The translations under genes were made by a program, and so were the position numbers. Of a DNA stretch of 64,000 nt, positions 5,019 to 62,321 are shown in pieces (the stretch's first letter is position 1; each line of letters starts with the position of its first letter). Under the pieces are notes generated by a model. The model was given only the letters and a program-made list of their open reading frames with translations. It searched no databases and was not told the DNA's origin. The DNA comes from Nannocystis bainbridge (GTDB lineage Bacteria; Myxococcota_A; Polyangia; Nannocystales; Nannocystaceae), in NCBI RefSeq assembly GCF_028368995.1, contig NZ_JAQNDL010000002.1, positions 288,001 through 352,000 on the forward strand, given 5' to 3'.

Positions 5019-5150
5019 GGACATGTCCTTTGGGGCATGCTCAGCGAGACATGGCTGTGAGGACATGTCCGGAAGGGCATGTCATTACGAAAGAACAGGC
5101 CCTTCGCGGCGGTGGCCGCGAGGACCTGTCTGGAAGGGCATGTCCACAAG
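5019..5150. repeat. Intergenic cluster of GGACATGTCC-family palindromes
   Basis: Exact copies at 5019-5028 and 5061-5070, plus variants GGGCATGTC and GGACCTGTC. Confidence 0.75.
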
Positions 5151-5169
5151 GACACGCTCTCCCGCGCGC

Positions 5170-6147
5170 TCAGGGCTTGGCGACGACCAGGACCTTGCCG
5201 CCGCGCTGCTGCTTCTCGGCGTGGCGCAGGGCCTCGCCGATGCGGTCCAGCGGGTAGGTGGCCTCGATCGGGGTGGTCAGCTCGCCGGTTGCGAGCAGGC
5301 CGAGCAGCTCGCCGAAGGCCTTGGCGACGCCCTCGCGCGGGGTGTTGCGGAACCACTCGACCAGCCAGAAGCCGCGCAGGGTGACGCCGCGGAACACCAG
5401 GTCGACGCCCGAGAGCTGGCAGGCCTCGCCGGACAGCAGGCCGTAGTTGACGACGACGCCGCCGGGGCTGACGGACGAGCCGAGGCGACCGGTCGCGGCG
5501 CCGCCGATGGCGTCGACGGCGAAGCGCAGGCTGCCGTCGCCGACGACGGCCTTGACGCGCTCGGCGAGGTCGGGGCCGTCGACGAGCACGACCTCGGCGC
5601 CCCAGCTCTTCAAGGTGTCCTCGAGGCCAGGTCGACGCACGACGGCGATCCCGCGCGCGCCGGCCTTTTTGGCGAGGGTGAAGAAGGCGCGGCCGACCCC
5701 CGAGTTGGCGGCGTTCTTGAGGACCCACTGGCCGGGCTGCAGCTGGGCCTCGTGGACGAGGGCGCGGGCGGTCAGCGGGTTGACGGTGAGCATGGCCAGC
5801 TGCTCGTCGGCGATGCCGGCCGGGAGGGCGAACAGGCCGGAGGCGGCGAGCACGTGGTGCTCGCGCCAGGTGCCGCCGCCGAGCAGGACGCGGTCGCCGA
5901 CGCGGATGTTGTCGACGCCGGAGCCGACCGCGGTGACGACCCCGACGCCCTCGAGGCCGCCGATCGCCGGCAAGGTGGGGACGATGCCGTACTGTCCGCG
6001 CAGGTTGAGCAGGTCGGCCGGGTTGATCGGCGCGGCCAGCATGGCGACGGCGGCCTGCCCGGGCCCGGGCGGTGGAGGTGCGGGGAGGTCGACGACCTCG
6101 GCGACCTCGTCGGGGGCGCCAAAGCGGGAGAACTGAACGGCTCGCAT
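5170..6147 (-). CDS. MDR-family NADPH oxidoreductase, trans-2-enoyl-thioester reductase-like
   Basis: AAPINPADL, GGLEGVG, MLTVNPLTA, NAANSGVG, NYGLLSG and LRGFWL; ATG at 6147. Confidence 0.9.
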   Translation of the reverse strand: MRAVQFSRFGAPDEVAEVVDLPAPPPPGPGQAAVAMLAAPINPADLLNLRGQYGIVPTLPAIGGLEGVGVVTAVGSGVDNIRVGDRVLLGGGTWREHHVLAASGLFALPAGIADEQLAMLTVNPLTARALVHEAQLQPGQWVLKNAANSGVGRAFFTLAKKAGARGIAVVRRPGLEDTLKSWGAEVVLVDGPDLAERVKAVVGDGSLRFAVDAIGGAATGRLGSSVSPGGVVVNYGLLSGEACQLSGVDLVFRGVTLRGFWLVEWFRNTPREGVAKAFGELLGLLATGELTTPIEATYPLDRIGEALRHAEKQQRGGKVLVVAKP

Positions 6148-6406
6148 GGCCGGAAAGTAGCACCGCGGCGGGCTCGATCGCTCGAGTCGCGGCGGGGATG
6201 CGGACAGCGAGCCCGGCCGCGCGAGCGAGCGGAGGCCCGGCCGCAAAAGCGTGAATCCGGGACGTCGAGGACGGGTGAAATGAAGGTCGCGGGTGCCCGC
6301 GAGCAGCGGCCGGGCGCGACGCAGGTCGCGGGTGAACGGCGAACGGAGGTGCAGCGCGACGACTCGCGGGCGCCCGGCGAGCACCCGTGATTCGCTGCGC
6401 CGGGCC

Positions 6407-7237
6407 TCAGAAGCGGCCGGACAGCGTCAGACCGGCGTAATTGAAGCTGAGGGTCGGCTGCAGGCGGACCTGGTTGTGGGTGATGTAGCGCATCAGCTTG
6501 AGGTTGCGGCCGTAGGCGACGCCGTGGGTCAGGAGGCCGACGCCGACGACGCCCATCGCCTGGCCGATGCCGATGCCCGCGAGGTAGCCGCTCATGCGCC
6601 GGCCCATGCACTGGCGGAAGCCGGGGACGTTGCCCTCGACGACCTCGGGGCCGCCGAGGTCGCCGCCGGTCATGTCGAGGATCGGGCTGCGCTCGTTGCA
6701 GGTGGCGAAGCCGAGGACGTCGGCGAACGAGGCGATCCGGACGCCGAGGTAGGTGACGATGCCGGCGGTCATGATGCCGGCGCCGAGGCCGATCTGCAGG
6801 GCGGCGTTCTGCTTGCGCTCGCCGGAGAAGGCGGTGCGGTGGGCGTCCCAGCGGCCGCGCATCGAGCCGCCGCCGGCGGCGAAGGCGAAGGCGGCGGTGT
6901 TGGAGAGCAGGCCGATCGGGGCGAGGATGCCGAGCGCGGCGCTGCCGTTGATGCACTGGTCGAAGCCGGCGACGCTCATGGCCTCGTTGTCGTAGCTGAG
7001 GTCGCGGCACAGGCGGCTGGCCGCGACGACGCGCCCGAGGTTGGCGCCGAAGCCGATGCCGCCGAGCACGCCGGCGGTGGCGAGCAGGCCGGTGCCGCGC
7101 CAGCGCGGCTCGGGCGGGCGGGCAGAGGCAGGGGCGGGGGCGTCCACGCTGGCGGCGGGCGCGGGGCCTTCGGGCGCGGGGGCCTCGGGCTGGGCGGCGA
7201 GGACGACGGAGAGGGCGAGGGCGACGGTGGAGGCCAT
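6407..7237 (-). CDS. Hypothetical secreted/membrane protein
   Basis: Signal peptide MASTVALALSVVLAA, Pro/Ala linker, hydrophobic helices and terminal GLTLSGRF. Confidence 0.7.
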   Translation of the reverse strand: MASTVALALSVVLAAQPEAPAPEGPAPAASVDAPAPASARPPEPRWRGTGLLATAGVLGGIGFGANLGRVVAASRLCRDLSYDNEAMSVAGFDQCINGSAALGILAPIGLLSNTAAFAFAAGGGSMRGRWDAHRTAFSGERKQNAALQIGLGAGIMTAGIVTYLGVRIASFADVLGFATCNERSPILDMTGGDLGGPEVVEGNVPGFRQCMGRRMSGYLAGIGIGQAMGVVGVGLLTHGVAYGRNLKLMRYITHNQVRLQPTLSFNYAGLTLSGRF

Positions 7238-7496
7238 GGTGGTGCTTCCGATCGGGATGTCCGCGAGGACATGGGGTGCGATCACCACGCGGCGGCGCGA
7301 ACACGTCGCGCTGCGGTCGTCGGGTGACGCGGCTGCGATCACCGGCGAGCGGGCGCGAGCGCGGCGCGCCGCGCGGCCCGTGGGGTGACCACGATCGGAT
7401 AGCTGCCCGTGCGGGCGCGACGGATCAGTGCGCGCTGTTTGGCGAGCTCACGGCCTCTGCACGTCGTTCGCGTGAAACCGGGCCCCGGACGGGCCT

Positions 7497-8723
7497 TCAG
7501 GCCCGCGGGAAAGTGCTGCTTTCTGCAACGACGTCGGCCAGCAGGTCGGCGACGGTGTGCGCCTCTTCCACGGTGAGGCACAGCGGCGGGCAGATGAATA
7601 AAAGATTGTCGCGGTACGGGACGTAGGCGCCGCGCTCGAGCAGGCGAGCGGCCAGCGGGGCGGCGGGGCGGTCGAGCTCGAGGCAGCGCATCAGGCCGAG
7701 GCCGCGGCTGTCGCGGACGGCGCCGCGCAGGGATGGCTTTTGGGACATGTCCTGAAAGCGCTCCGCGAACACGCCACCGACCTGGTCGGCGTTCTCGGGC
7801 AGGCGCTGCTCGGCGTAGACCTCGAGCGCGCCGAGAGCGGCCGCGCAGCCGACCGGGTGGGCGTAGTGGGTGACGCCGCACCATAACTTGTGGTCGTCGA
7901 AGTGAGCGGCGACCTTCGCGGAGGCCATGACTGCGGACAGCGGGGCGTAGCCGCTGGTGAGGCCCTTGCCGAGCACCATGAGGTCGGGCTGCACGCCCCA
8001 GTGCTCGCGCGCGAACCACCGGCCGGTGCGGCCGAAGCCGCTGAAGATCTCGTCGTCGACGAGCAGGATGCCGTGGCGGTCGCACACCGAGCGCACCGCG
8101 GGCCAGAAGTCGGGCGGCGGGGGCTGCATGCCGTTGGTGCCGGTGAAGCCCTCGAGCACGATCGCGGCGATGGTCTCGGGGCCCTCGCGCTCGACGACCT
8201 CGTGCAGGCTCTGGGCCCACGCCGAGGGCTCGCCGGCGGGCGCGGGGTACGGGTCGTCGATGTGGATCGCGGGCGCGAGGTCGGCGGCGAACGGGGCGCG
8301 GCGCGGGTCGCCGGCGATGCCGAGCGTCGCCAGGGTGGCGCCGTGGTAGCTGCGGCGGCGCGTGACGATCTTGCTGCGGCCGGTGTAGAGGCGGGCGATC
8401 TTGATCGCGTTCTCGACCGCCTCGGCGCCGCCGGAGGCGAGGAAGGCCCGGGCGAGGCCGGTGCGCTCGGCCAGCGCGGCGGTGAGCTGCTCGCGGACCT
8501 CGAGGCGCATGTTGGGCCCGGCGACCGGGAGCTCGCGGATCTGGGCGATCATCCGCTCCTGAATGTGGCGCACGCCGTGGCCGGCGTTGACGTTGTAGGT
8601 CTGGCTCTCGAGGTCCCACAACCAGCCGTGCTCGCGGGTGCGGAAGCGGGCGCCCTCGGCGGCGTCGACGGTGAGCGGGTGGGCGTTTCGCTGGGCGGAC
8701 CAGGTGTAGAAGATATGGCTCAT
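7497..8723 (-). CDS. Class III PLP-dependent aminotransferase (omega-amino acid/taurine type)
   Basis: GGAEAVENAIK, RSYHGAT, DDEIFSGFGRTG and VLGKGLTSGY (PLP Lys); 4-bp overlap with the upstream gene. Confidence 0.9.
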   Translation of the reverse strand: MSHIFYTWSAQRNAHPLTVDAAEGARFRTREHGWLWDLESQTYNVNAGHGVRHIQERMIAQIRELPVAGPNMRLEVREQLTAALAERTGLARAFLASGGAEAVENAIKIARLYTGRSKIVTRRRSYHGATLATLGIAGDPRRAPFAADLAPAIHIDDPYPAPAGEPSAWAQSLHEVVEREGPETIAAIVLEGFTGTNGMQPPPPDFWPAVRSVCDRHGILLVDDEIFSGFGRTGRWFAREHWGVQPDLMVLGKGLTSGYAPLSAVMASAKVAAHFDDHKLWCGVTHYAHPVGCAAALGALEVYAEQRLPENADQVGGVFAERFQDMSQKPSLRGAVRDSRGLGLMRCLELDRPAAPLAARLLERGAYVPYRDNLLFICPPLCLTVEEAHTVADLLADVVAESSTFPRA

Positions 8724-9883
8724 GGGACATGTCCTCCGCGCCAGCGATCGAGCTGGACCACGGTGAACGGCTCGGTCTGGCCGCAGCCGCGGCCGACCAG
8801 GACCTGGCCGCGGGAGAGGTCGATGATCATGCGGCCGCAGGTCTTGGAGGCGGACGGATCGCCGCCGCCGTCGTCGATGTGCGAGCAGACCGAGCGGGGG
8901 AAGCCGTCGTGGCTCGACAGCATGGTCCACAGGGCGCGGGCGTCCTGCGGGCGCTGCTGGACGTAGAGGGTGGTGGCCAGCTCCATGCGGCGGAACGAGG
9001 TGCTGGCCTTCGGGACAGCTTCGTGCTGGCGCAGGATCGGGTCGAAGCAATGGTTGGTGTGGAGGTGGGCCGCGCGGGCGCCGACCTGGGTGACGACCTT
9101 GAGCTTGCCGGAGGTCTCGACGCCGAAGAACTCGCGGCCGTCGGCGATCATGTAGTGGTGACCCGAGGACAGGCGGGTGCGCAGCAGCAGGTCGCGGGCC
9201 TCGCGGGCGCTGGCGCAGGCCAGCATGGCGCGCACGAGCGCGGGCCAGACCACGCCGACCTGACCGTCGGTGCTGGACAGGTTGTTGATGGTGACGGCGA
9301 GGCCGCTGGCGCTGACGCCGGTCATGCCGAGGCAGCCGGTCAGGGTGAAGCAGACGACCTCGTCGTCGCCGCGCCTGGGCTTGATGCGGATGGCGCGCAC
9401 GTAGGGCTCGGCGGTGCCGTGCATGTCCCAGGTCTGGCCGAGCACCGGGGCGTCGTGGCCGGGCAAGTAGACGGCGGTGCAGCCGCCCGGATCGTCGTCG
9501 TCGTCGTTGGTGTTGAGGGCGTGGAAGGTGTCCGAAACGACAGGGTCTTCCGGACATGTCCCTTCGAGCACGCTCGGCGGGACGTCGCGCAGGTCGGTGT
9601 AGTGGTTGAGGATGACGACCGCCTCGGGGGTGACGGCGGCGCCGCGGGCGATGCCCCGCAGCTCGGCGGCCAGCGGCGCCGAGAAGTTGTCGAGCAGCGG
9701 GAGGTGGAGCCGGGCGACGTCGTCGAGCTGGGCGCGGCCGGAGAACGAGCCCTTCTTGAGCGCGAGCGCGGCGCGGATCTCGACGAGCTCGCGGATCTCG
9801 GCCCGCCACAGCTCGCCGTGGGCCTCGCCGCGGGCGGCCGGGTCGTCTTGATCGAACAGGAACGGTGCGAAGGAGTCGGTCAC
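8720..9883 (-). CDS. C45 family Ntn-hydrolase/acyltransferase (isopenicillin-N acyltransferase-like)
   Basis: GEAHG, ELRGIARGA, GG-CT autocleavage site, GQTWD and HTNH; GTG start overlaps the upstream stop. Confidence 0.88.
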   Translation of the reverse strand: MTDSFAPFLFDQDDPAARGEAHGELWRAEIRELVEIRAALALKKGSFSGRAQLDDVARLHLPLLDNFSAPLAAELRGIARGAAVTPEAVVILNHYTDLRDVPPSVLEGTCPEDPVVSDTFHALNTNDDDDDPGGCTAVYLPGHDAPVLGQTWDMHGTAEPYVRAIRIKPRRGDDEVVCFTLTGCLGMTGVSASGLAVTINNLSSTDGQVGVVWPALVRAMLACASAREARDLLLRTRLSSGHHYMIADGREFFGVETSGKLKVVTQVGARAAHLHTNHCFDPILRQHEAVPKASTSFRRMELATTLYVQQRPQDARALWTMLSSHDGFPRSVCSHIDDGGGDPSASKTCGRMIIDLSRGQVLVGRGCGQTEPFTVVQLDRWRGGHVP

Positions 9884-13913: not shown

Positions 13914-15132
13914 CGGCCACGCGCTCGGCGTCGTCCTCGCGCAGGGCCGGGTCGACGTCGGCGTCCGGGTCGTCGGCCTCGTCGTCGTCGATCTCGGCGG
14001 TCTCGGGGGCACGCGCCGCGAGCTCGGCCACGGCCGGGCGCAGGGTCAGCAGGCCGAGGTGGCCGGGCACGACCGCGAGGCCGAGGGCGAGCTGCTCGGC
14101 GGCGGCGGCCGCGTCCTCGCGCTCCAGCGCGTCGCGCACGGCGGCCTCCTGGGCGGCGGCGAACATCGGGTTGTGGGTCAGGGCGGCGGCGGCGAGGGCG
14201 GCTCGCTCGGCGTCGGCCTTGGCGTCCTGGCGCGAGAGACCTGGCTTTTCGGGCATGTCCTTCGGGGCCTGCTCCGAAGGACCGGGCGCTTCGGACATGT
14301 CCTTAGGAGCCTGTCCCGAAGGACCTGGCCTTTCGGACTTGCCCGAGAGGGCGAGGCAGGCGAGCGCCAGGCAGTGGGCGCGCAGGCCGGGCTCGGTGGC
14401 CCGCTCGGCGGCCTTGCGGAAGGCGGCGACGGCGTCGCCGAGCTTGCCCTCGCCCTGGCGGACGCGGCCGAGCTCGAGGTGGCCCCACACGAACTCGGGG
14501 GCGCGGCGCAGCAGCTGGCGCAGCTCCTGGGCCGCGCCGCGCAGCTCGCCGGCGCGGCGCAGCGACTGGGCCAGGCGGAACCGGGCCAGCGGGGCGTCGG
14601 GGTCGAGGTCGAGGTGGCGGCGCAGCAGCCGGCGCTCGGCCGCGGGGGTGAGCTCACCGTCGTCGCCGAACAGGTCGGACTGGTACTCGCCGTCCTCGTC
14701 GAACAGGACCGAGAACTCGCCGAGCAGGGCCAGGACCAAACGGTCGATCGAGGAGGCGCACGGCAGACGCTCGCCGTCCTCCTCGACGAGCACGACGTCG
14801 GCGCCCTCGGCGTGCGGGTCGGCGACGAGGACCAGGAGGTCGCGCCCGCGCTCGCCGATGACGCGGTCGCCGGGGCGCAACCGGCCGTCCTCGGCGGCGG
14901 CCTCGGTGGCGCCGGCGTGGTCGGCGAGCGGGTAGAGGCGAGCCTCGCCGCCTGCGAGATCGAGGCCGTCGTAGGTGCCCCACAGCAGGGCGAGGTCGGG
15001 ATCGATGCCGGAGGCCGCGAGGGCCTGCTCGCTGGCGGGGCCGCCGACGTCGTGGAGACCTTCGGGAGCGTCGCGCAGGCGGTCCTCGATGCGGTCGAGG
15101 TTGTTCAGGACGCGCCGGCGCTCCTCGCTCAT
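13798..15132 (-). CDS. SMI1/KNR4-like N-terminal domain plus TPR repeats
   Basis: GPASEQAL...LWGTYDGL (SUKH-like); TPRs ARFRLAQSL and GHLELGRV; acidic tail. The 3' end overlaps the AraC gene by 116 nt. Confidence 0.6.
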   Translation of the reverse strand: MSEERRRVLNNLDRIEDRLRDAPEGLHDVGGPASEQALAASGIDPDLALLWGTYDGLDLAGGEARLYPLADHAGATEAAAEDGRLRPGDRVIGERGRDLLVLVADPHAEGADVVLVEEDGERLPCASSIDRLVLALLGEFSVLFDEDGEYQSDLFGDDGELTPAAERRLLRRHLDLDPDAPLARFRLAQSLRRAGELRGAAQELRQLLRRAPEFVWGHLELGRVRQGEGKLGDAVAAFRKAAERATEPGLRAHCLALACLALSGKSERPGPSGQAPKDMSEAPGPSEQAPKDMPEKPGLSRQDAKADAERAALAAAALTHNPMFAAAQEAAVRDALEREDAAAAAEQLALGLAVVPGHLGLLTLRPAVAELAARAPETAEIDDDEADDPDADVDPALREDDAERVAARAAPEPDTGSASSPYGGQKPARSSGDRRSRRPARSRG

Positions 15133-16900: not shown

Positions 16901-17994
16901 GGCGAGCTCGCAGGCGTGATGGGTGGCAGACGCCCCTCGGCGAGGCGAATGGTATCAGCGATCGTCGAGGCTTCGGGGCGATCGGGATCGCGCGCGTCGA
17001 CGCGTTCGAGGTCGATGTGCCACACCAGCGCGGCGGGGGAAGCTTCGCCGGGATGCAGTTCCAGGCGCACGCCGGCGGCCCCGTGGATCCGGTCGTCGAC
17101 GACCGGGAGGGACGCGGCGTGGCGCAGGCGGCCGTCGAGGTGATGCCGGGGGACGAAGTGGCGCGCGAGGTAGCGGACGTCGCGGGCGAGCTCGCGGCCG
17201 TCGGGGCCGACGAGGGCGGCGTGCACGGCGAGGCGGCGGAACAGGTCGCCGGTGGGGAAGGCGTGGCCGACGTCGCGGGTGCGCAGCTCGAGCTCGAGGG
17301 CGTCGCCGTCGCGCCGCGCGACGACCTCGAGCGCGCGCTGCATGGCCGCCGGATCGCGGGTGGAGGCGAAATCGTGGGCGGCGGCCGGCATGTGACAGTC
17401 GGCGCAGCTGCGATCGGCGTGCGGCGAGCGCTGGTGCTCGCGCATGGTGGTCTGCATCATGGTGCCGCGGGCCTGGGCGCTGCCGTCGGGGAAATCGAAC
17501 TCGTGGCAGGGGGCGCAGGCGCGGGTGGGGAAGGCAGGATCGCGGCGCAGGACGTGCGGGGCGTCGCTGCCGGCGCGGATGGCCGCGGTGACGATCGTCC
17601 CGGGGCCGCCGTGACAGTCGAGGCAGCCGACGCCGAGCAGCTCGGCGTCGGCGGCGGGCATGCGGGGGCGCGCAGGGGCGTGACAGTCGCGGCAGAAGGG
17701 GGTCGGCTCGCGGGCGTAGGAGCGCTGAAATTCGTCGTTGGTGAAGGCGGCGTGGTGCCGCGAGCGGGCCCAGGCGTCGGCGACTTCGGCGTGACAGGCG
17801 GCGCACTCGTCCTCGCGCGGCAGCCAGGTGATCGCGGGCTCGCGTGCGGGCGGGGCCCGGCGACCGTCACAGGCGGTCAGCAGCGCGACGAGCAGGACGA
17901 GGTGCGCGCGAGCGGCCAAGGCGGCGACGATAGCGGGCCGACGGGCGCTGCTCAAGGCGCTCGCACGAAGATTGACATAGGTCTCTTGGGACAT
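16897..17994 (-). CDS. Multiheme (5x CxxCH) c-type cytochrome lipoprotein, c554-like
   Basis: CAACH, CRDCH, CLDCH, CAPCH and CADCH; WARSRH; GHAFPTGD; lipobox LTAC. True start may be near 17900. Confidence 0.85.
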   Translation of the reverse strand: MSQETYVNLRASALSSARRPAIVAALAARAHLVLLVALLTACDGRRAPPAREPAITWLPREDECAACHAEVADAWARSRHHAAFTNDEFQRSYAREPTPFCRDCHAPARPRMPAADAELLGVGCLDCHGGPGTIVTAAIRAGSDAPHVLRRDPAFPTRACAPCHEFDFPDGSAQARGTMMQTTMREHQRSPHADRSCADCHMPAAAHDFASTRDPAAMQRALEVVARRDGDALELELRTRDVGHAFPTGDLFRRLAVHAALVGPDGRELARDVRYLARHFVPRHHLDGRLRHAASLPVVDDRIHGAAGVRLELHPGEASPAALVWHIDLERVDARDPDRPEASTIADTIRLAEGRLPPITPASSP

Positions 17995-18078
17995 GTCCCG
18001 AGAGTCCTATGTCGATTGTCGCTCGACCCCGGTGAATGGCCGGGGCGAGTGCGGACTCTTGGGGATGTCAGGCGCCGA

Positions 18079-20798: not shown

Positions 20799-20989
20799 GC
20801 CGGGCCTGCATGCGGGCCTGAGCGCGCCTGCGGGGATGTCCTTGCGGACATGCTCGGTAGAGCGTGTCCGGAAAGGGCGGCGATGCGGGGCGACGAAGGC
20901 GGCCCCATGCGGCATGGTCCAAGGGACATGCTCGCGGGGACAGGGCCTTTGCGGCATGTCGCACAGGACATGCCGCAAAGGTCAGGCCG

Positions 20990-25906: not shown

Positions 25907-25963
25907 GGCGAGAGGGACAGGTCCGATAGGCAAGGTCGAAAGGGACATGTGCGAAGCGCCAGG

Positions 25964-27310: not shown

Positions 27311-27474
27311 GGGGACGGGGGAGGGGGCCGGAGGGACAGGTCGCGGGGGCTGATGACAGGGTCGAAGAGATGGGTTCTTTGGGGAATGTACTCGGGGACA
27401 GGTTCTTCGGGGCATGTCCTTATGGATATGGCCGTTGGGAAATGTCCTCGGGGACATGTCCTCGGGGACACCGG

Positions 27475-32963: not shown

Positions 32964-32973
32964 GCGAGTGCCC

Positions 32974-38460: not shown

Positions 38461-38590
38461 CGGCGGTCAAGCTGTCCTGAAGGACAGATCGGAGAGCGGG
38501 GCCAGGGCGCAATGATAGGACATGACCTTCGGGTCATGTCCCATCAATTCCGGGATTGTGTCCGGACGCGCCCGGCGAGGGCGGCGCTGT

Positions 38591-42765: not shown

Positions 42766-42771
42766 TCGCCG

Positions 42772-45059: not shown

Positions 45060-47303
45060 TCAAGGGACAGGTTGCATGGCCGCGAACCCGTGGGCGCGCA
45101 CGTAGTTGATGTGCATGCCCTTACAGACATGTTCATGAGAGCATGTCTTGCAGCGCAGGCTCTTGACGTGGAAGCCGTCGTCGATGAAGCGGCGGGCGTA
45201 GCGGAAGATCTCGAGGCCGCCGTCGGGGCCGAGCTGGGCGGCGTCGAACACCGGCGGGCGCTCGCGCGGCGGCCGGCCGGCGATGCACGCGGGGACGGCC
45301 TCGACGGGCACCGGGGGCCGGAGGGCGGCGAAGAAGGCCGGGAGGTCGAGGTCGAGCTCGGCCGACTCGGTGAGGCGCTCGCGCGCGGGCTGGCGCAGGA
45401 CCAGGCGCGGCGGGGCAGCCTCCAGGGCGAGCAGCCAGGCCTCGGCGGCGCGCGACAGCAGGAGCACGACTTCGAGGTCGAGGGGGAGGTCGAGCAGCGC
45501 GGCGGCGGCGGCAGGGTCGGCGACGACGACGCGGACCAGGCGCTTGCCGGCGATCGATGGCTGGCCTTCGGGACCTGTCGTGGAGGACATGTGCGAGAGC
45601 CGGGCGATCAGGGCCGCGGGGTCGGCGAGCTCGAGCTCGAGCTCGGGGACTTCGGGGTAGTCGGCGGCGAGGGCCTCGGCGGCCGCGAGGTCGGGCGCGA
45701 CCAGCCACAGCGCGCGGGGCCGGGCCGCCGCCGCGAGGGCGCGGGCGTCGAGGCGCGGGCGCGCGGGTGGCTGCGACGCGCCGGCGCCGAGCAGCGGGAG
45801 GCGGAAGCGGCGGGGCGGCGGGTTCGCGGTGACGCCCGGCCGGGTGGCGGGAAGGACATGTCCCGAGAGACTGGTGGTGACGGGGGCCGGCGACGAGATG
45901 GCGGGAGGGACATGTCCCGCGGGACCGGTGGTGACGGGGGCCGGCGACGAGATGGCGGGAGGGACATGTCCCGAGGGACTGGTGGTGTCCAGGACCGGCG
46001 ACGAGATGGCGGGAGGGACATGTCCCGAAGGACTTGTCGACGTCGTATCGTGGTCCATGACGGCGAGGGCGCCTGGGCCGCGGTCGGTCGCGCGCGGGTC
46101 CGGGAGCTCGACGCGCCGCGCGTCGCGGGCCTCGGCCATGCCGGCGGCGGCCTCGTCGGCGGTGCCGGCCCACGCGTCGAGGCTGTCCTCGGGGACATGT
46201 CCTGAAAACCCGTCTTCAAAGCTGTCCTCGGGGACATGTCCCGAGAGGCCGGCGGCCAGGGCCCGCTCGGCGAGCACGCGGTGCAGGCGGGCGGCGGCGT
46301 GCTGGCGGCTGGCCGGGTCGCCGCCGTAGGCGACGGGGGCGTGATGCTCGGCGCCGGCGTCGATCCGCAGGACCTCGAAGCGCTGGCCGGCGAGGGCGGC
46401 GCGGACCTCGTCGAGGTGGTCGCACAGCGGCTCGAGGTAGCAGTGCTTGCAGCGCTCGGGGGCTCGGCAGTCGAGCGGGATGTCGTGCTCGAGCAGCAGC
46501 GCGTACTCCTCCTTGCGCCCGCGGACCTCTTCGATCAGCTTGTGCGGGTCCTGGATCAGGTCCTCGAAGCCCTCGAGGTGCTGCGGCGGAAATCGGTTGA
46601 GCCAGACGTGGACGCCGGGCCGGCGTGCGTAAGCGAAGGCCTCGAGCAGGTAGGGGCGCATGGCCTCGAGGTCGTAGAAGAGGACCTCGCGGCCCTCGCT
46701 GTAGGCGCGGCCGAACGGGATGACGTGCAGCAAGTCGAACTCGCGCACGCCCATGGCGGTGAAGGTGGCCATGAGCTCGGGCAGCTGCTTGACGTTGCCG
46801 CGGTTGACGCAGACGTCGATGTTGACGACGGGGCGACCGTCGGCGAGCGCGCCCTGGAGCCCCTTGACCTCCTCGTCGAAGGCGCCCTTGGTGCCGACGA
46901 GGGCGTCGTGGATCCGGGCGTTGGGGCCGTGGATCGAGAACGTGATCTCGCTGAGGCCGGCGTCGAGGGCGGCCCGCAAGAAGGCCGGATAGGCGAACAT
47001 GCGGCCGTTGGTGACGGTCTGGATCTTGCGATAGCCGGCGCGCCGGCCGAGGCGCACGAAATCGACGAAGTTGGGGTGGATGGTGGGCTCGCCGCCGGAG
47101 AGGATCAGGCGAGTGGCGCCGCGCCGGCGTCCGTCGAGGATCTGGGCCTTGATCTCGTCGCGGTCGCGGTTGGTGCCGTCGTGCGTGTGGGCGTCGAGGC
47201 AGAACACGCAGCGGTCGTTGCAGTCGAACGTCAGCCGCACCCAGTTGCGCCGCTCGTGCGCGGCCTCTTCGTGCTGCACGGCGGTGGCGGGGAGAGCGTC
47301 CAT
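45060..47303 (-). CDS. Radical SAM protein with C-terminal Cys cluster and internal repeat insertion
   Basis: CNDRCVFC, SGGEPT, TNG and FSIHG; CKHCYLEPLC; C-terminal CKTCSHEHVCKG. Confidence 0.9.
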   Translation of the reverse strand: MDALPATAVQHEEAAHERRNWVRLTFDCNDRCVFCLDAHTHDGTNRDRDEIKAQILDGRRRGATRLILSGGEPTIHPNFVDFVRLGRRAGYRKIQTVTNGRMFAYPAFLRAALDAGLSEITFSIHGPNARIHDALVGTKGAFDEEVKGLQGALADGRPVVNIDVCVNRGNVKQLPELMATFTAMGVREFDLLHVIPFGRAYSEGREVLFYDLEAMRPYLLEAFAYARRPGVHVWLNRFPPQHLEGFEDLIQDPHKLIEEVRGRKEEYALLLEHDIPLDCRAPERCKHCYLEPLCDHLDEVRAALAGQRFEVLRIDAGAEHHAPVAYGGDPASRQHAAARLHRVLAERALAAGLSGHVPEDSFEDGFSGHVPEDSLDAWAGTADEAAAGMAEARDARRVELPDPRATDRGPGALAVMDHDTTSTSPSGHVPPAISSPVLDTTSPSGHVPPAISSPAPVTTGPAGHVPPAISSPAPVTTSLSGHVLPATRPGVTANPPPRRFRLPLLGAGASQPPARPRLDARALAAAARPRALWLVAPDLAAAEALAADYPEVPELELELADPAALIARLSHMSSTTGPEGQPSIAGKRLVRVVVADPAAAAALLDLPLDLEVVLLLSRAAEAWLLALEAAPPRLVLRQPARERLTESAELDLDLPAFFAALRPPVPVEAVPACIAGRPPRERPPVFDAAQLGPDGGLEIFRYARRFIDDGFHVKSLRCKTCSHEHVCKGMHINYVRAHGFAAMQPVP
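45854..46241. repeat. In-frame 54-bp (about x3.5) and 39-bp (x2) tandem repeats built on GGACATGTCC
   Basis: Exact palindromes at 45854, 45908, 45962, 46016, 46193 and 46232. Encodes GHVPPAISSP and SGHVPEDS repeats. Confidence 0.88.
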
Positions 47304-47344
47304 TCCGGGCCAATCGTACCCGGCGCCCCGCGCAGGCCGCAAGC

Positions 47345-49858
47345 GTGCTAACGTCGCCAGCCGTGCGCCCCGGCCGCGTCCTCGTCGTCCATCCGCCCGT
47401 GTCGGTGGCGCGGGACTTCATCGATTACCCGTACTTCGTCGACCTCGGGGCGGTGCAGCTGGCGGCGGTGCTCGAGGCCCGTGGGATCGCGTGCGACCTG
47501 GTGGATGCGTACGCGCTGCCGGAGCAGCGCGAGGGGCTGCGCGGCGCGGAGGACGTGGGGGCGAGCGAGCCGCGAGGGCCGGAGACCGTGAGGTCCGCGG
47601 CGGGCGAGTCGCAAGCGACGGAGAGCGAGCGAGCGGGCGAGGTGCGGCACGCGGCGTCGTCGATGCACTGGCGCAGCGACGGGCGGGCGCACCTGGGGGC
47701 GACGGTGGCGGCGACGCTGGCTGCCTGTGCACGGGACGTCGCGGCGGTCGTGGTCGCGGTCACGCCGTTTCACCGGCCGCCGGCGCGCGACGATCTGCTC
47801 GGCGAGCTGCTCGCGGGCCTGCGCGCGCGCCACGGGGCGGCGGTGCCGATCGTGCTGGCCGACTGCTACCAGTCGGGGCAGCACTACGTGGCGGCGCCGC
47901 AGCTGCTCGCCAGCTACCCGGAGGCGGACGCGTACGTGCAGTTCGAGGCCGAGGTGACGGTGCCGGCGCTGCTGCAGGCGTTCTTGGCCGGCGGGCCGGG
48001 GCCGCGCGGCGTGCACCGGGGCGAGCAACCTGTCCTCGAGGACATGCCCGTTCCGGCATGGTCCAAAGTCAACCTCGAGGCGTACCACGAGTTCCGCGCG
48101 GCGGTGGTCCGCGGGCTCGGGCGCGGCGGCTGGGCGTTCCCCATCGGCGGGCGCACGCTGCCGGCGGTGACGAGCCGCGGCTGTCCGTTCCAGTGCGCGC
48201 ACTGCAGCTCGAACCCCGACGTGGAACCGGGCCGGCCGAAGACGCAGCGGCGCCACGACCCGGCCGGGCTGCGGCGGATGCTGACGGCGCTGGCGCAGGA
48301 GCACGCGGCCGAGCGGGTGTTCATCCTCGACGAGCTGATCAACGTGCACCCGGCCCACTTCGATCATGTCCTGGAGGCCATCGGGGCGCTCGGGCTGGGC
48401 TTCGAGCTGCCGAACGGGCTGCGCGCCGATTACCTCGAGCCGCGCCACTTGCAGGCGATGCGCGGGCGGATCACGACGCTGAGCGTGAGCGCCGAGAGCG
48501 GGGTGCAGCGGGTGGTCGACGAGGTGGTCGGCAAGCGGCTCGACCTGGCGGCGATCGTGCGCGCGGCCGAGTCGGCGGCGGCCGCCGGAGTGCCGCTGAT
48601 GATCCACTACATCATCGGCCAGCCGGGCGAGTCGGCGGCGGAGATCAACGCGACGCTGAGCTTCGCGCTGGATCTCTGGGACAGGTTCAAGGCGTGGCCG
48701 GCGGTGCAGTTCGCGACCCCGCTGCCGGGCACGCGGCTGGCCCGCGCGCTGCCGCTGGCGCCGCCGCCGGCCGATCACGACTGGGGGCCGCGGTTCCAGC
48801 GGGCGCCGACCGGGGCGACGGTGCCGGCGGCGCTGCTCGAGAAGTTCCGCTGGACGTTCGAGCAGCGGCTGCGGGCGTCGCAGGGGCCGCAGAAGCTGGT
48901 GATGAACGCGACCTACGCGTGCAACAACCATTGCAGCTTCTGCGCGGTCGGGACGCGGTCGCAGCTGCACGGCGACGGCGAGCGCCTGCGCGAGCAGCTG
49001 AGCCACTACCGCAAGCAGGGGGTCGAGCTGCTCGACATCGACGGCGGCGAGCCGACGCTGCACCCCGATCTGCTGGGCCTCATCCGTCACGCGCGCGCGC
49101 TCGGCTACCGGGCCATCAACGTGACGACGAACGGGCGGCTGTGCGCGTACGAGGCGTTCGCGGCCCGCCTCGTCAACTCGGGGCTGTCGTCGCTGCTGTT
49201 CAGCGTGCACGGGGCCGACGCCCGCACGCACGCGCAGAACGTCGGGGTCGCGGAGGCCTTCGAGCAGACGCTGGCGGGGGTGCGCCACGCGGTCCGCCTG
49301 GCGCCGCGCGGGGTCGAGCTCGGCCTCAACGTGACGATCACGAAGCACAACGAGGGGCAGCTCGATGCCATCACGGCGCTGGCGTGGTCGCTCGGGCTGC
49401 GCTGGGTGAACTACCAGTTCCTGACGCCGTTCGGGCGGGCGACGGCGATGCTGGCGCCCGACACGGCGCGCGCGGCGGACAGCCTGCGGGCGGTGATCGA
49501 GGCGTGGCAGGACCGGATGAAGCTGCAGGTGATCAACCTGCCGTTCTGCTTCCTGCCCGGGCACGAGGCGCTGCTGCAGGGCGACCTCGGCAAGCTCGAG
49601 CGCCACATGGCGTTCGTCAACAACGAGACGGTCAACCTGGCGCAGTACCTGGCCGAGCGCCGGGTCCGCAAGCCGGTGTGCGCGTCGTGCCCGCACGCGT
49701 GCTTCTGCGGCGGGTTCTACGAGCTCGACGAGGTGCCCGAGCCGCCGTGGCTGATCGCGCCGGAGGACCTGGTGCGGCCGCTGACCGATCCGCGGCGCCA
49801 CGAGTCGGTGCCGGCCGAGCTGCGCGAGCGCCTGCGCAAGCGCGCGGGGCCGGCGTGA
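47345..49858 (+). CDS. Cobalamin-binding-type radical SAM fused to a second radical SAM domain
   Basis: N-terminal HPP...LGAVQLAAVLE; TSRGCPFQCAHC; second CNNHCSFC, GGEPT, TTNG; C-terminal CASCPHACFCGG. Confidence 0.9.
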   Translation: MLTSPAVRPGRVLVVHPPVSVARDFIDYPYFVDLGAVQLAAVLEARGIACDLVDAYALPEQREGLRGAEDVGASEPRGPETVRSAAGESQATESERAGEVRHAASSMHWRSDGRAHLGATVAATLAACARDVAAVVVAVTPFHRPPARDDLLGELLAGLRARHGAAVPIVLADCYQSGQHYVAAPQLLASYPEADAYVQFEAEVTVPALLQAFLAGGPGPRGVHRGEQPVLEDMPVPAWSKVNLEAYHEFRAAVVRGLGRGGWAFPIGGRTLPAVTSRGCPFQCAHCSSNPDVEPGRPKTQRRHDPAGLRRMLTALAQEHAAERVFILDELINVHPAHFDHVLEAIGALGLGFELPNGLRADYLEPRHLQAMRGRITTLSVSAESGVQRVVDEVVGKRLDLAAIVRAAESAAAAGVPLMIHYIIGQPGESAAEINATLSFALDLWDRFKAWPAVQFATPLPGTRLARALPLAPPPADHDWGPRFQRAPTGATVPAALLEKFRWTFEQRLRASQGPQKLVMNATYACNNHCSFCAVGTRSQLHGDGERLREQLSHYRKQGVELLDIDGGEPTLHPDLLGLIRHARALGYRAINVTTNGRLCAYEAFAARLVNSGLSSLLFSVHGADARTHAQNVGVAEAFEQTLAGVRHAVRLAPRGVELGLNVTITKHNEGQLDAITALAWSLGLRWVNYQFLTPFGRATAMLAPDTARAADSLRAVIEAWQDRMKLQVINLPFCFLPGHEALLQGDLGKLERHMAFVNNETVNLAQYLAERRVRKPVCASCPHACFCGGFYELDEVPEPPWLIAPEDLVRPLTDPRRHESVPAELRERLRKRAGPA

Positions 49859-50061
49859 GCGCGGGGCTGGCGTGCCCGCGCTGCGGCTGTCCTGAAGTGC
49901 AGGTGACGGGCGGGCGGGCGAGCGCGTGCGCGCCGCTGCCGACGCCGGAGCTGCTCCGCTGCCCGCAGTGCGAGAACACGGGGACGCGGCTGCCGCTGCG
50001 CGGGCGGCCGCTGGTGCGCTGGGAGCACGAGGCCGGCGAGGGCGGTGAAGGACATGTCTGA
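49855..50061 (+). CDS. Small Cys-rich zinc-ribbon-like protein (68 aa)
   Basis: GTG start overlaps the rSAM stop (GTGA); CPRCGC...CPQC. Confidence 0.6.
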   Translation: MSAGLACPRCGCPEVQVTGGRASACAPLPTPELLRCPQCENTGTRLPLRGRPLVRWEHEAGEGGEGHV

Positions 50062-50157
50062 GGAGACATGTCGAATCGGCAATGTCCTGCGGGACATGCT
50101 TATGAGGGCATGTCCCAGGGGACAGCGTCGGCGCGGCCCGGCGCGCGGAGCCGGCGT

Positions 50158-52407: not shown

Positions 52408-52805
52408 TATTAAAACTAAGTCCGGCGAAGGGCGAGGTGAGCACGGTACCACGACCGCGGGCCGTGGAGCGCCCCATGCGGGCCAACCGTGGCTCCATCG
52501 GCAGGCATCTTATGGGTCGCGTGGGCTGCGCCGCTGAACGGTGATATCGACGAGCGATTGTTGCGGCTGTCTGGCCGCGCGCGCGAGCGATGGTGGGCGC
52601 GACGCCTGCATGGGCCCCGAGGCCGCAGGGCGACAGCACACGGGCGGGGCAACTGGCGGCGAGATCCGGGCGCAAGGGCTGCCGCTGCGCCGATGCGGGC
52701 GGGGCGAGTTGGTGGCCCTGCGTGGACGTGAGGGCGAAGCTCGCGTCGCGGCGCTGGCGGGCGCTGAGCCGCGGGCGCAGCGGTGCGCGCCTGGGCGATC
52801 CAGGC

Positions 52806-53003
52806 GCGCGCCGCTGCTTCGTCGCGCGTGGTCCCAAATGCATGTCTTTGGGGACATGCCCTCGGGGTCATATGGACGGCGCGTTCAATGTCGTTATTTC
52901 AGGGGCGCGCCGCTGCTTCGTCGCACGTGGTCCCAGAGTCATGTCTTTGGGGACATGACCTCGGGTGCATGTGGGTGGATCGGTCGATGTCGTGTCATTT
53001 CGG
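52806..53003. repeat. 99-bp direct repeat x2 containing CATGTCTTTGGGGACATG
   Basis: Units start at 52806 and 52905. Confidence 0.75.
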
Positions 53004-54608: not shown

Positions 54609-54615
54609 GCCGACC

Positions 54616-56456: not shown

Positions 56457-56514
56457 CGCGGGCGGCTCGCCGGACCGCGCGTCACTCGCGGTCCGGGCCG
56501 CGCCCGTGACCAGG

Positions 56515-57914: not shown

Positions 57915-58224
57915 GCCGGTCGTCGGATGTCCGCAAGGACAGGTCTGTGGGGCCCGGAATGCGGGGCGACCCGGAGCTGTCCGAAAGGACATAGAGGCGA
58001 TTGGCAGGAGCTGGGGACATGTCCTGCGGGACATGTCCTTCGAAGCCGAGGATTCACCGCGCGGGTCCGGCACGCGTGACAGGGCGCACGGGCTCCGGCG
58101 TCGGGCCGCGCCGCCGGCGGACGTTGCGAGGGCGGGTCGGATTGACTATACCGTGAGCACGTCTGGCGGACGCAAAGTGCCCCCAATCGCCGCTGCGCGA
58201 CCGGGTAACCCCGAGGGAGGACAC

Positions 58225-58869: not shown

Positions 58870-58939
58870 GCGCGCCCGGGAGATGTCCCGAGAGACATGT
58901 GGGTCGATCGCCGGCCCGCGCGCGGGTATCGTCGCCGTC

Positions 58940-59929: not shown

Positions 59930-59937
59930 GGGCGGCG

Positions 59938-60612: not shown

Positions 60613-60614
60613 GT

Positions 60615-60648
60615 ATGACCAGTTTGACAAATCAGGTCATTTAGTCAA
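60615..60648. promoter_or_regulatory. Candidate TetR operator overlapping a TTGACA -35 element
   Basis: ATGACCAGTTTG-a-CAAATCAGGTCAT is an imperfect palindrome in an AT-rich divergent region; TTGACA at 60624-60629. Confidence 0.55.
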
Positions 60649-60741
60649 TATTGGTCTCAAGCCCGCCGGGGAGTCGTTTGGAGCCGATGTCGGCGCGAAT
60701 CCGCGCGCCTGCTCCGCGCACCGCGCAGGGCCCCAGGAGTC

Positions 60742-61425
60742 ATGGCCATGAAGTGGAGTCAGATCCGCGAGCTCAGCCGCATGCAGCGCGAGGGCCGATC
60801 GATCGGCGACATCGCGGCGCTCAAGTTCTCGTACCTGGCGGGGTCGAAGCACGCCGGCAATCACCGCCTTCACACGCTGCCGACGCCCAGCCTCGAGGTC
60901 GACCTGGCCAGGCTGCGGGCGCTGCCCGAGGGCACGGTCGGCCGCGCGCTCGCCCACCAGCTCGACCGCAACAAGCTCGAGCCGCTGGTGATCAGCGACG
61001 AGATGAAGGCGCGCCTGGCCGACAACCCGCTGGCGCTGCGCTACACGACCACGCACGACCTGGTCCACGTGCTGACCGGGTTCCCGACCACGCCGGCCGG
61101 CGAGATCGGGGTGTTCGCGTTCATGATCGGGCAGGGCTTCGGCTCGTCGCGCGCGCTGCTGTGGACCAGCGCGGCGGTGTATGGGCTGCTGATGCCGCTG
61201 CACGTGGCGGGGATCGTTCACAACGTCCGCGTCGGCCTGCGCATGGCCCGGGAGACGCCGCCGATGCTCGAGGCGCGGCTCGAAGACCTGATGGCGGTGC
61301 CGCTGGCAGAGGCGCGCGAGCAGCTCGGCCTGCGCCCGGAGACGATCGCCGCGATCGCGCCGGGGCACGACAGCTGGCTGGCCAAACGGATCCTCGCCCA
61401 GTCGCCGAGCAAGGCGATGGCGTGA
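60742..61425 (+). CDS. Coq4-family protein
   Basis: LPEGTVGR and RY...HDLVHVLTGF....GE (HDxxH-x11-E). Confidence 0.88.
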   Translation: MAMKWSQIRELSRMQREGRSIGDIAALKFSYLAGSKHAGNHRLHTLPTPSLEVDLARLRALPEGTVGRALAHQLDRNKLEPLVISDEMKARLADNPLALRYTTTHDLVHVLTGFPTTPAGEIGVFAFMIGQGFGSSRALLWTSAAVYGLLMPLHVAGIVHNVRVGLRMARETPPMLEARLEDLMAVPLAEAREQLGLRPETIAAIAPGHDSWLAKRILAQSPSKAMA

Positions 61426-61637
61426 GCTGCTTCTGTGACATGTCCTAAGGGACATGTGTGTGTTTGCGAAGCGTGAGGTTGGGCGGCGACATGTCCCGAT
61501 GGACATGTTAAGGTCGAGGTCCGATCTGACCCGGAGGACAGGGGATAGATTCGGGCGCCGGTGGGGTGGCCCGGAGGACAGGTGTCATCGCCGCGACGGC
61601 GGGTGAGTGTCGCAGCATGTCCCGGAGGCCAGGTTCG

Positions 61638-62321
61638 TCAAGCGCCCCGATCGAGGGCGACGTCGAGGAAGGCGTGGCCGTCGCGCTCGAACACGGCGCC
61701 GCTGCGCAGCGCGAGCGGGCGGGCGAAGCCGGGCAGGTCGGTGACGAGGGTGTGGAACTCGCCGTGCTCGCCGCAGGGATCGACGGCGGCCGGCAGACCG
61801 GACAGCAGGGTGCTGTCGAAGCTGCGACCGAGCCATTCGGCCCCCATGCGCGCGAGGTCGACGGCGACGAGGGTCGCTCGCAGGCCACCGGCGATCATCG
61901 CCCGCGCGAGTTCACCGGTGTCCTGGCCCCACAGCGGGAAGACGGCGCGCAAACCTGTCCCTCGGAGCATGTCCTCTCGGTAAGCCCGGATGTCGGCCAG
62001 GAACAGGTCGCCGAACGCGATCGCGTCGATCTGCTCGGCGCGGGCGCGCTCGATCACCGCGCTCATCCGGGCCTGGTAGACGGCGTTGGGGCACGGGTCG
62101 GGCAGCGCGACCTGCCACAGCGGCAGGCCGAGCGCGTCGGCCTGGGCCAGCAAGACTTCGCGCGGAGTGCGGTGCATGACGACCCGGGCGTCGTCCTCGC
62201 GCGTGGTGGTGAGCAGACCGACGAGCTCGACCGCAGGGTCGCGCGCGAGCACGACGCTGGCCCACGCGGAGTCTTTGCCGCCGCTCCAGGCGAGGATCGT
62301 TCGGGCGCGCTTTCGCGGCAT
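61638..62321 (-). CDS. PP-loop ATP pyrophosphatase (diphthine-ammonia ligase/MJ0570-like)
   Basis: WSGGKDS, FGDLFL, FPLW and DPCGEHGEFHT. Confidence 0.9.
   Translation of the reverse strand: MPRKRARTILAWSGGKDSAWASVVLARDPAVELVGLLTTTREDDARVVMHRTPREVLLAQADALGLPLWQVALPDPCPNAVYQARMSAVIERARAEQIDAIAFGDLFLADIRAYREDMLRGTGLRAVFPLWGQDTGELARAMIAGGLRATLVAVDLARMGAEWLGRSFDSTLLSGLPAAVDPCGEHGEFHTLVTDLPGFARPLALRSGAVFERDGHAFLDVALDRGA

Follow-up and report, generated by a model that had tools for sequence, protein, structure and literature searches.

Why does a single 10-bp palindrome, GGACATGTCC, recur throughout a 64,000-nucleotide stretch of the Nannocystis bainbridge genome (contig NZ_JAQNDL010000002.1, positions 288,001 to 352,000; this whole stretch is referred to as the window), both in the gaps between genes and within the genes themselves? 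An initial annotation, made from the letters alone, had counted 18 exact copies by eye, and all 18 were recovered at their exact positions, whereas 100 dinucleotide-preserving shuffles averaged 0.04 copies and never gave more than one. The whole assembly (G000; 11.05 Mb in five contigs, 71.5% G+C) holds 956 exact copies, about 0.09 per kb, where a zero-order model expects about 9.5. Despite being 40% A+T in so G+C-rich a host, GGACATGTCC ranks 56th among all 1,048,576 10-mers and fourth among the palindromic ones, and the most frequent other palindrome of equal composition reaches only 139 copies. Near-copies, which the annotation had also pointed to, are abundant: 3160 carry one mismatch, led by GGACATGCCC (410), GGGCATGTCC (330) and CGACATGTCC (314), and 8718 carry two. 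CATG is the most invariant core of the unit, and the core ACATGTCC is the commonest 8-mer of intergenic DNA (2676 counts). A maximal-order Markov null (960 expected versus 956 observed) was dropped as a test of the excess, because the repeat raises the counts of the embedded 9-mers just as much; the excess was instead judged against zero-order, shuffle, same-composition and codon-aware nulls. The decamer repeat is a real and very strong feature of this genome.

The repeat unit is comprised of the 10-bp palindrome and a free 4-nt spacer, held in a strict 14-nt phase. Successive copies with at most one mismatch are separated by 14 (602 cases), 28 (214), 42 (146) or 56 nt (43), while any other distance up to 120 nt occurs at most 13 times. 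The units had been described as chained through spacers of three or four nucleotides, but the spacer is 4 nt and practically nothing else, as k = 4 accounts for 1014 occurrences of CATGNCC-N(k)-GGNCATG, k = 3 for 6 and every other k from 0 to 10 for at most 9. The spacer sequence is free, with a weak symmetric Y-N-N-R tendency and a relatively A+T-rich composition. Defining arrays by seeds with at most one mismatch, extending them by 14-nt steps and merging overlaps, we find 3121 arrays of 1-11 units each across the genome, which together comprise 7468 units and occupy 92 kb, or 0.83% of the sequence. The same phase is found in the loci of other species, with 26 cases at 14 nt and at most 4 at any other distance when the ascertained dimers are masked.

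Outside the units, flank profiles contain no conserved signal except further, decaying units, and therefore the repeat consists of the units alone. The flanks of the 20 perfect dimers are unrelated, the long identical pairs listed being self-overlaps or close to contig ends, and a larger mobile element enclosing the dimers was rejected on that basis. Read in direct orientation, adjacent spacers resemble one another in 306 cases where 183±13 are expected by chance, and spacers two apart in 174 cases where 103±9 are expected. Arrays therefore grow by local duplication in 14- and 28-nt steps, and they lengthen or shorten locally by 14, 28 or 42 nt. A convergent intergenic region elsewhere in the genome (G000 C3:1085839-1085950) holds eight near-identical 14-nt units of the form GGTCATGYCC-ctga, a true 14-nt minisatellite derived from the motif.

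Because each unit is itself palindromic, two units and the spacer between them make up an inverted repeat whose arms give a 10-bp stem around a 4-nt loop. Across 3190 adjacent intergenic pairs, deviations from the consensus are compensated by a Watson-Crick change in the partner unit 946 times, compared with 673±20 when partners are shuffled, while symmetric compensation inside a unit falls below the shuffles (279 versus 401±15 at position 2/7). Direct tandem duplication predicts the opposite of this pattern. The tendency is statistical and not absolute, and it can be followed through evolution at the hairpin that lies after the forward-strand gene 37888-38460, which reads GGACATGACC/GGTCATGTCC in the window, GCACATGTCC/GGACATGTGC in relative G010, GGACATGTCC/GGACATGTCT in G001, ATACATGTCC/GGACATGTAT in G005 and AGACATGTCC/GGACATGTCT in G007. 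These five species have five different outer stems, each of them compensated; the inner ACATGTCC/GGACATGT is kept, with one compensated change in the window (A/T at the 7:2 pair), and the remaining outer pairs co-vary across species. Predicted folds of the examples in the window range from -20 to -48 kcal/mol, with z-scores of -3.0 to -7.6. Together, these data show that adjacent units pair as a hairpin of this geometry.

The hairpins are not placed at random with respect to genes. Genes were called with a codon log-odds caller trained on long frames with high GC3, which gave 7919 genes and 83.5% coding sequence, both approximate. Intergenic DNA makes up only 16.5% of the genome, yet 617 of the 956 exact copies are intergenic and another 19 lie across a gene end, together 66.5%. 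Of the 1418 convergent intergenic regions, 642 (45%) contain an array, compared with 729 of 4189 tandem and 138 of 1440 divergent regions, corresponding to 2.5, 0.95 and 0.33 arrays per kb, respectively. Within tandem regions, the arrays lie a median of 52 nt from the upstream stop codon and 171 nt from the next start (n = 939), and the modal distance from stop to array is 0-20 nt (252 of 950 arrays). In the window, a dozen gene ends have arrays after them. The intergenic clusters named in the initial annotation are all present, and the arrays located between genes or at gene ends are as follows.

5019..5084: five phased units (two exact), intergenic, downstream of gene 5170-6147 (reverse strand)
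5122..5159: three units, 10 nt past the stop of 5170-6147 (reverse strand)
17989..17998: single exact unit, intergenic, downstream of 18079-19074 (reverse strand)
20830..20985: degenerate units in phase, located between convergent genes (intergenic region 20799-20989), e.g. CGGCATGTCG-caca-GGACATGCCG, with compensated outer pairs
25915..25952: three-unit array filling the 57-nt intergenic region after the stop of 25964-27310 (reverse strand)
27382..27461: six-unit array after the stop of 27475-28815 (reverse strand); Tandem Repeats Finder period 14, 6.5 copies
34527..34564: three-unit array at the 3' end of 32968-34578 (forward strand), overlapping the junction with the next gene
37520..37557: three-unit array, 36 nt past the stop of 36942-37484 (forward strand); predicted fold -30.8 kcal/mol
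38518..38541: hairpin dimer GGACATGACC-ttcg-GGTCATGTCC, convergent intergenic, after 37888-38460 (forward strand); predicted fold -23 to -28 kcal/mol, z -3.5 and -6.6
50050..50115: five-unit array, convergent intergenic, between 47363-49858 (forward strand) and 50158-52407 (reverse strand); two predicted hairpins, -48.3 kcal/mol, z -7.6
52801..52993: 99-nt tandem repeat, 1.9 copies, with a degenerate dimer in each copy (units at 52852 and 52937-52960)
57925..58038: degenerate units and, at 58015-58038, the perfect dimer GGACATGTCC-tgcg-GGACATGTCC; past the stop of 56835-57914 (forward strand)
58879..58902: degenerate dimer, 10 nt past the stop of 58225-58869 (forward strand)
61436..61510: two dimers, convergent intergenic, after the stop of 60742-61425 (forward strand)

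The cluster at 20835-20975 consists of degenerate units only, with 2-3 mismatches. Orthologous regions carry arrays in all four relatives examined at 5019..5084; the array at 25915..25952 is near-identical in two of four relatives, the other two having a 3.2-3.3-kb insertion (region 25907-25963); and the intergenic region of 61436..61510 holds two different dimers in G007, a genome in which the perfect dimer at 58015-58038 is absent from the orthologous place.

The strand on which imperfect pairs fall carries a further signal. With each hairpin read in the direction of the gene before it, the non-Watson-Crick pairs of arrays that begin fewer than 60 nt past a stop comprise 544 G·U and 367 A·C on the sense strand (p = 5e-9); farther away the two are level (131/122 at 60-150 nt and 113/116 beyond 150 nt). 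The sense-strand surroundings of the arrays are not skewed toward G+T. In tandem regions, the variant GGGCATGTCC is found 117 times on the sense strand and its complement GGACATGCCC 65 times. A stop-proximal excess of G·U, together with more GGGCATGTCC than GGACATGCCC on the sense strand, is what selection on the transcript would give. At one place in the genome (C1:3039664-3039771 of G000, loci L025/L036), a GC hairpin with a T-rich tail, GGCACCTGGC…GCCAGGTGCC, replaces the motif dimer of two other species. The arrays themselves were rejected as canonical terminators, as they lack T-rich tails and terminator-like sites between 36000 and 55999 number 7, compared with 4.1±2.6 in shuffled sequence; Rfam returned no gathering-score match in the window. 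Transcript ends of this kind have a precedent in Streptomyces avermitilis (>70% G+C), where, according to the accessible text of the study, a U-rich motif accompanies only about 25% of mapped 3' ends and those that lack U are genuine (PMC8780764).

Placement at gene ends is only part of the distribution, as the called genes contain 320 exact copies, compared with 40.6 under a synonymous-codon shuffle within each gene that keeps the protein and 7.3 under a codon-order shuffle. A codon-aware comparison had been proposed by the initial annotation, which held that the motif is read in all three frames and that the constraint therefore acts on DNA and not on protein; both statements hold genome-wide. 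The 320 copies are read as DMS (187), GHV (111) and TCP (22). The rare-codon frame GGA-CAT-GTC accounts for 111 copies where 1.5 are expected, and the DMS tripeptide is 2.75 times over-represented (429 versus 156 expected); therefore the constraint lies on the nucleic acid, and protein sequence is shifted with it. At least two phased units are present in 596 of 1215 coding arrays. The copies within genes of the window are the following.

7743..7752: single exact unit, read Q-D-M-S-Q, in the class-III aminotransferase gene 7497-8723 (reverse strand)
8725..8734: single exact unit at a gene junction, encoding the C-terminal G-H-V-P of 8720-9883 (reverse strand), just before the start of 7497-8723 (reverse strand)
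9552..9561: single exact unit, read T-C-P, in coding sequence 8720-9883 (reverse strand)
14248..14344: phased array in gene 13798-15150 (reverse strand), giving a 14-residue protein repeat (…APKDMSEAPGPS…)
42974-42997, 43553-43590 and 44086-44095: three sites inside the TPR-protein gene 42772-44829 (reverse strand)
45571..46241: one dimer plus six exact units, located in the linker between domains of the radical-SAM protein 45060-47303 (reverse strand)
48026..48049: degenerate dimer in coding sequence 47363-49858 (forward strand)

How such copies arise can be read from orthologues at two of these places. The aminotransferase unit at 7743 lies in a variable helix and is conserved in four of four close relatives, one of which has a phased dimer there. 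A more distant orthologue from the same genus is motif-free and of equal length, and of two orthologues from a related genus (g4), both motif-free, one is of equal length and the other two residues shorter. Since there is no length change around the unit, it originated by substitution, and the coding excess together with this substitution-type origin indicates that a DNA-level, sequence-specific driver also exists. In the radical-SAM linker, the six exact units are all read G-H-V, a 54-nt repeat is present 3.5 times, and the linker varies among species by whole motif-bearing segments, in length and in unit number (in the residues shown, one exact unit in 52 residues in G007 and six in about 160 residues in the window). 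Local duplication or insertion has therefore operated in at least one place. Elsewhere, the unit at 8725..8734 is exact in two of four relatives and a variant in the other two, that at 9552..9561 is exact in two of four and has one mismatch in two of four, and the sites of the TPR-protein gene are conserved in relatives where the region can be aligned. In gene 13798-15150, three 14-nt units make 42 nt and hence a 14-residue protein repeat, which Tandem Repeats Finder reports with period 42 and 2.2 copies. The radical-SAM protein is one of an adjacent, divergently transcribed pair within 45060-49858 (747 and 831 residues), and only the first of the two has a variable, motif-bearing linker. A separate feature, unrelated to the palindrome, is gene 53445-54608 (forward strand), largely composed of tandem repeats of 12, 24, 69 and 93 nt (at 53806-54610) in which GGCAAG/GAGCAGGAC is frequent.

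Outside Nannocystis, the element is limited to two sister genera. A scan for the perfect dimer in one genome per species, covering 185,579 species, returned 78 stretches, of which 64 are in Nannocystis records, 9 in a metagenome-assembled genome (MAG) of Nannocystaceae, 2 in a Myxococcales MAG and 3 are singletons elsewhere, about the level of chance. The dimer is present in 8 of 10 other genomes of the genus, in none of 14 genomes from other genera of the family and in none of 16 genomes from other families of the class. This recurrence of the phased motif, which extends to many independently assembled public records, dispels the concern raised with the initial annotation that the motif might be an assembly artefact. 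Exact decamers number 956 and 763 in two large genomes of the genus, 164 and 60 in two divergent, incomplete ones, 25-76 in genus g2, 19-77 in genus g4 and 1-17 in 13 other genera, with 0-7 per genome for a reversed control pattern. Counts of a hairpin core pattern are 66 for a g4 genome, 22 for a g2 genome and 0-1 for three further genera. Motif density is thus high in the core of the genus, intermediate in g2 and g4 and at baseline elsewhere; a 400-kb sample of a g4 genome (G060) holds the motif too, about one fourth as densely.

Most copies also appear to persist. Of the 78 loci ascertained in other species, 28 have syntenic flanks in N. bainbridge, which correspond to 22 distinct places; in our reading of these, 19 have at least one unit, 16 have a phased pair, 2 have none and 1 is undetermined. 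Units are often perfect while spacers and flanks are randomised (e.g. loci L018, L020 and L066 compared with N. bainbridge). Given that 19 of 22 places still have a unit, and that perfect units stand amid changed spacers and flanks, the copies are mostly old and maintained.

The 14-bp phase, the hairpin pairing and the 3'-end bias with its RNA-strand signature, none of which had figured in the initial annotation, are the features most telling on mechanism. We propose that GGACATGTCC and its free 4-nt spacer constitute a clade-specific family of short dispersed hairpin repeats in 14-nt register, whose arrays are concentrated directly downstream of stop codons and between convergent genes. In the transcript, these arrays would form mRNA 3'-end structures without a U-tract, which may stop or pause transcription or block 3'-to-5' decay, and would do so in both directions between convergent genes. 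A second ingredient, presumably a sequence-specific factor or drive acting on DNA, would be needed because the sequence is uniform, the spacing is fixed at 4 nt and the decamer is in excess inside genes. We favor this combination of 3'-end transcript hairpins with a sequence-specific DNA-level driver tentatively, with a little less than even confidence, from sequence comparisons. Placement, compensation, the stop-proximal G·U signature and the one replacement by a conventional-looking terminator point to the first of its two layers. The overall picture resembles the neisserial uptake sequences, in which a DNA-level signal is also paired as terminators, and the fixed spacing and long arrays are more like clusters of repetitive extragenic palindromic (REP) sequences and bacterial interspersed mosaic elements (BIMEs), or like a cooperative DNA-binding array.

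Several observations weigh against this combination. The placement rests on our own codon-bias gene caller and not on a standard annotation, and the 3'-end bias could partly be mere tolerance, as there are no promoters to disrupt between convergent genes. Within genes, the balance tips slightly toward A·C (329 G·U versus 387 A·C), and the divergent set, which is small and arbitrarily oriented, does not fit neatly either, with 51 G·U versus 98 A·C. There is no U-tract: at least five T in the next 10 nt are found in 3.2% of 710 arrays and in 2.8% on the opposite side. The loop tetranucleotides have no strand bias (CGAA 21, TTCG 20), and the proposal that, on the RNA strand, the spacers form stable tetraloops of the GNRA or UNCG type was rejected, as 662 of 848 are neither and no strand bias is seen. 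The majority of deviations from the consensus are uncompensated (at position 2, 283 of 1641 are compensated), and template-switch mutation in quasi-palindromes, instead of selection, could be the source of the compensation that exists. At the orthologue of 27311-27474, where the window has the six-unit array 27382..27461, the arrays of relatives are built of the non-palindromic variants GGACAGGTCC/GGACAGGCGC in one orientation with a 14-nt period; these cannot pair mutually as palindromic units do, and hairpin formation does not explain them. Finally, an RNA role leaves the 320 coding copies, the exact 4-nt spacing and the fixed stem sequence unexplained, and an RNA hairpin role alone also leaves unexplained the arrays of up to 11 units and the coding copies of substitution type.

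A signal for DNA uptake or recombination, of the type of the DNA uptake sequences (DUS) and uptake signal sequences (USS), is an unlikely alternative. The decamer would then spread by molecular drive wherever it is tolerated, and terminator pairs would be secondary. In the accessible part of the literature on Neisseria, the DUS is a 10-nt signal that is mostly intergenic, often just past a stop codon and in permissive regions; close inverted pairs act as terminators, pairs within at most 21 nt are treated as one terminator pair, and in meningococci the average spacing is about 1,150 nt (PMC2397512). The layout of the decamer matches this pattern, and drive of this kind fits the coding excess (320 versus 7-41), the excess of DMS (429 versus 156), the origin by substitution in a variable protein segment, the unique flanks without a transposase and the restriction to one clade. 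ComEC and DprA homologues are present, which says little because both are found in most bacteria, and we know of no evidence for sequence-biased uptake in Nannocystis, a point on which no search was made. The model does not predict a spacing of exactly 4 nt or phased arrays of up to 11 units, and the density, about 0.09 exact copies per kb, is low next to a DUS every ~1,150 nt. In addition, in a 400-kb sample from a motif-poor sister genus (G019), neither a palindrome nor a hairpin family stands out as peculiar to that genus, and hence no 'dialects' are seen.

Binding by a cooperative DNA-binding protein, whether nucleoid-associated, acting as a roadblock or recruiting a topoisomerase, is likewise unlikely, although it addresses the register directly. 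A dimer would occupy each decamer, oligomerise at 14-bp spacing and prefer gene ends, a situation with a likeness in BIME-2 and gyrase in E. coli. This gives the best account of an exact 14-bp register with a free spacer sequence, and it accommodates the invariance of the CATG core, the single sites inside genes, the symmetric Y-N-N-R spacer tendency without strand bias, and the keeping of perfect units at one locus over four species (L018/L020/L066 versus G000) in which spacers and flanks have changed. A symmetric binder, however, predicts neither the compensation between units (946 versus 673±20) nor symmetric changes within a unit that fall below chance, nor a strand-specific G·U excess limited to stop-proximal arrays, and no candidate protein was found.

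A bolder version of the favored combination would merge its two layers into one dedicated sequence-specific 3'-end system, a possibility we regard as quite unlikely. A candidate factor would read the 24-nt structure, either as two phased decamers in DNA or as a hairpin in RNA or single-stranded DNA, would define many U-tract-free transcript ends and would drive the decamer into genes. Such a system would be analogous, in bacteria, to factor-dependent terminators or to the histone stem-loop with its binding protein, and proteins would have been reshaped by substitution, with the excess of DMS, GHV and TCP and the 14-residue repeats encoded by 42-nt arrays as the result.

Of the four explanations offered by the initial annotation (a chromosome-organising protein, an uptake-like signal, a tiny selfish repeat akin to the Rickettsia palindromic element (RPE), and a methylation-linked palindrome like highly iterated palindrome 1 (HIP1)), none is shown, although the DNA-level constraint behind them stands, and the last two are weakened. 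A miniature mobile element, either a REP or REP doublet (REPIN) mobilised by a transposase or an insertion of the RPE or miniature inverted-repeat transposable element (MITE) type, is very unlikely. It would explain the expansion to 0.83% of the genome in one lineage, the extragenic, palindromic and clustered character shared with REP/BIME, the differences in presence between species at some places (L042; 58015-58038 compared with G007) and the motif-bearing segments gained or lost in the radical-SAM linker. The Y1 transposase of REP systems (REP-associated tyrosine transposase, RAYT; PF01797), whose co-occurrence had been suggested as a check, is found in none of 11 genomes of the genus (completeness 64-91%), including a single-contig one, with the control positive in 6 of 14 known genomes. 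Conserved flanks, terminal repeats and a larger unit are lacking, the flanks of copies being unrelated; the aminotransferase copy arose without a change in length; and the presence of a unit at 19 of 22 places fits old, maintained copies better than rapid turnover.

Most improbable is a HIP1-like system, in which the decamer or its CATG/ACATGT core would be methylated by a cognate methyltransferase and repair would be biased toward restoring the site. To our knowledge, no phased arrays, hairpins or 3'-end bias have been reported for HIP1. A hyper-abundant palindrome under DNA-level constraint in coding and non-coding sequence would fit, but the D12-class methylase, the one class tested, was found in 39 of the 41 genomes from the family, irrespective of their motif count, Vsr was found in none of the four motif-rich genomes of the genus, and the CATG tetramer is just 1.24 times over-represented genome-wide; moreover, HIP1 itself, which is recognised by two methylases (PMC4390886, PMC13756078), is described in the accessible parts of these sources merely as quasi-periodic in distribution. 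The fit of the decamer to the p53 half-site is coincidence as far as can be tested; a search for a P53 domain gave no match, although it is uninformative because control genomes were equally silent.

Several further features of the arrays in relatives stand apart from this weighing. At the orthologues of 4845-5169 in G005 and G007, the intergenic region is 1.5-1.6 kb long and ends in three tandem ~95-nt modules, in each of which another inverted repeat, rich in G+C, comes after a motif dimer (…GGACATGTCG-aatg-GGGCATGTCC…). Region 17956-18078 has insertions of ~6.6-7.4 kb in G001, G005 and G007 and of 1.2 kb in G010, and region 38461-38590 has a ~0.9-kb insertion with an extra gene-like stretch in relatives; at these places and at 25907-25963, the window, and sometimes G007 too, has the short region. 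The genome as a whole strongly avoids CTAG (1509 observed versus 7649 expected, ratio 0.20) and over-represents AATT 3.1 times, and G-C skew is above zero in all 4-kb bins of the window (0.02-0.21), high for a bacterial chromosome arm.

The element matters first by its extent, as the decamer dominates intergenic space and an array is present in 45% of convergent gene junctions. If the hairpins mark transcript ends, operon boundaries could be read off directly from the sequence and a small terminator part that works in both directions would be at hand, both helpful for a genus that is mined for natural products and hard to engineer. Because REP-like clusters without a transposase are combined here with DUS/HIP-like enrichment in genes by substitution, the element is a useful test case for how palindromes spread, as well as for a factor enforcing an exact 14-nt register, and it leaves a visible mark on proteins in the excess of tripeptides and in linker and repeat segments derived from arrays. 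A search of published literature, supplementary files aside, on the decamer, on Nannocystis repeats or palindromes and on myxobacterial REPs found no description of it; the matches listed for the decamer concern p53 or eukaryotes, and in the accessible part of the N. exedens genome note the only repeats mentioned are large, unresolved ones.

The element shares features with several known systems. Like the REP/BIME sequences of Enterobacteria and Pseudomonas, which occur with RAYT, it consists of imperfect hairpin palindromes in hundreds to thousands of copies, occupying just under 1% of the genome, extragenic, biased to gene 3' ends and convergent pairs, with clusters that grow by local duplication and a lineage-specific sequence. 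REP systems have a GTAG-type tetranucleotide beside the palindrome; the Nannocystis repeat, in contrast, has no RAYT/Y1 transposase or conserved flanking tetranucleotide, and is a 10-bp palindrome in exact 14-nt register with codon-independent enrichment in genes. With DUS and USS it shares, as far as the accessible accounts of these go, a signal of 9-12 nt that is mostly intergenic and often past a stop, inverted pairs as terminators, genic copies at permissive sites and clade specificity, but the Nannocystis motif is palindromic, has a loop fixed at 4 nt, forms arrays of up to 11 units, is roughly ten times less dense and lacks a U-tract. Intrinsic terminators have a similarly stable, short-loop, G+C-rich hairpin tens of nucleotides or less past the stop, whereas the Nannocystis hairpins have no U-tract, one shared stem sequence, multi-unit arrays and genic copies. 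Cyanobacterial HIP1 (GCGATCGC) is likewise a highly iterated palindrome, genic and intergenic, far above expectation and under DNA-level selection; in the accessible sources, however, it is tied to orphan methylases and not described as phased hairpin arrays at gene ends, whereas here the motif is not tracked by the D12 methylase. These properties are not accounted for by any known repeat system, and we rate the element a short dispersed palindromic repeat of the REP/DUS/HIP kind with an unusual combination of features.

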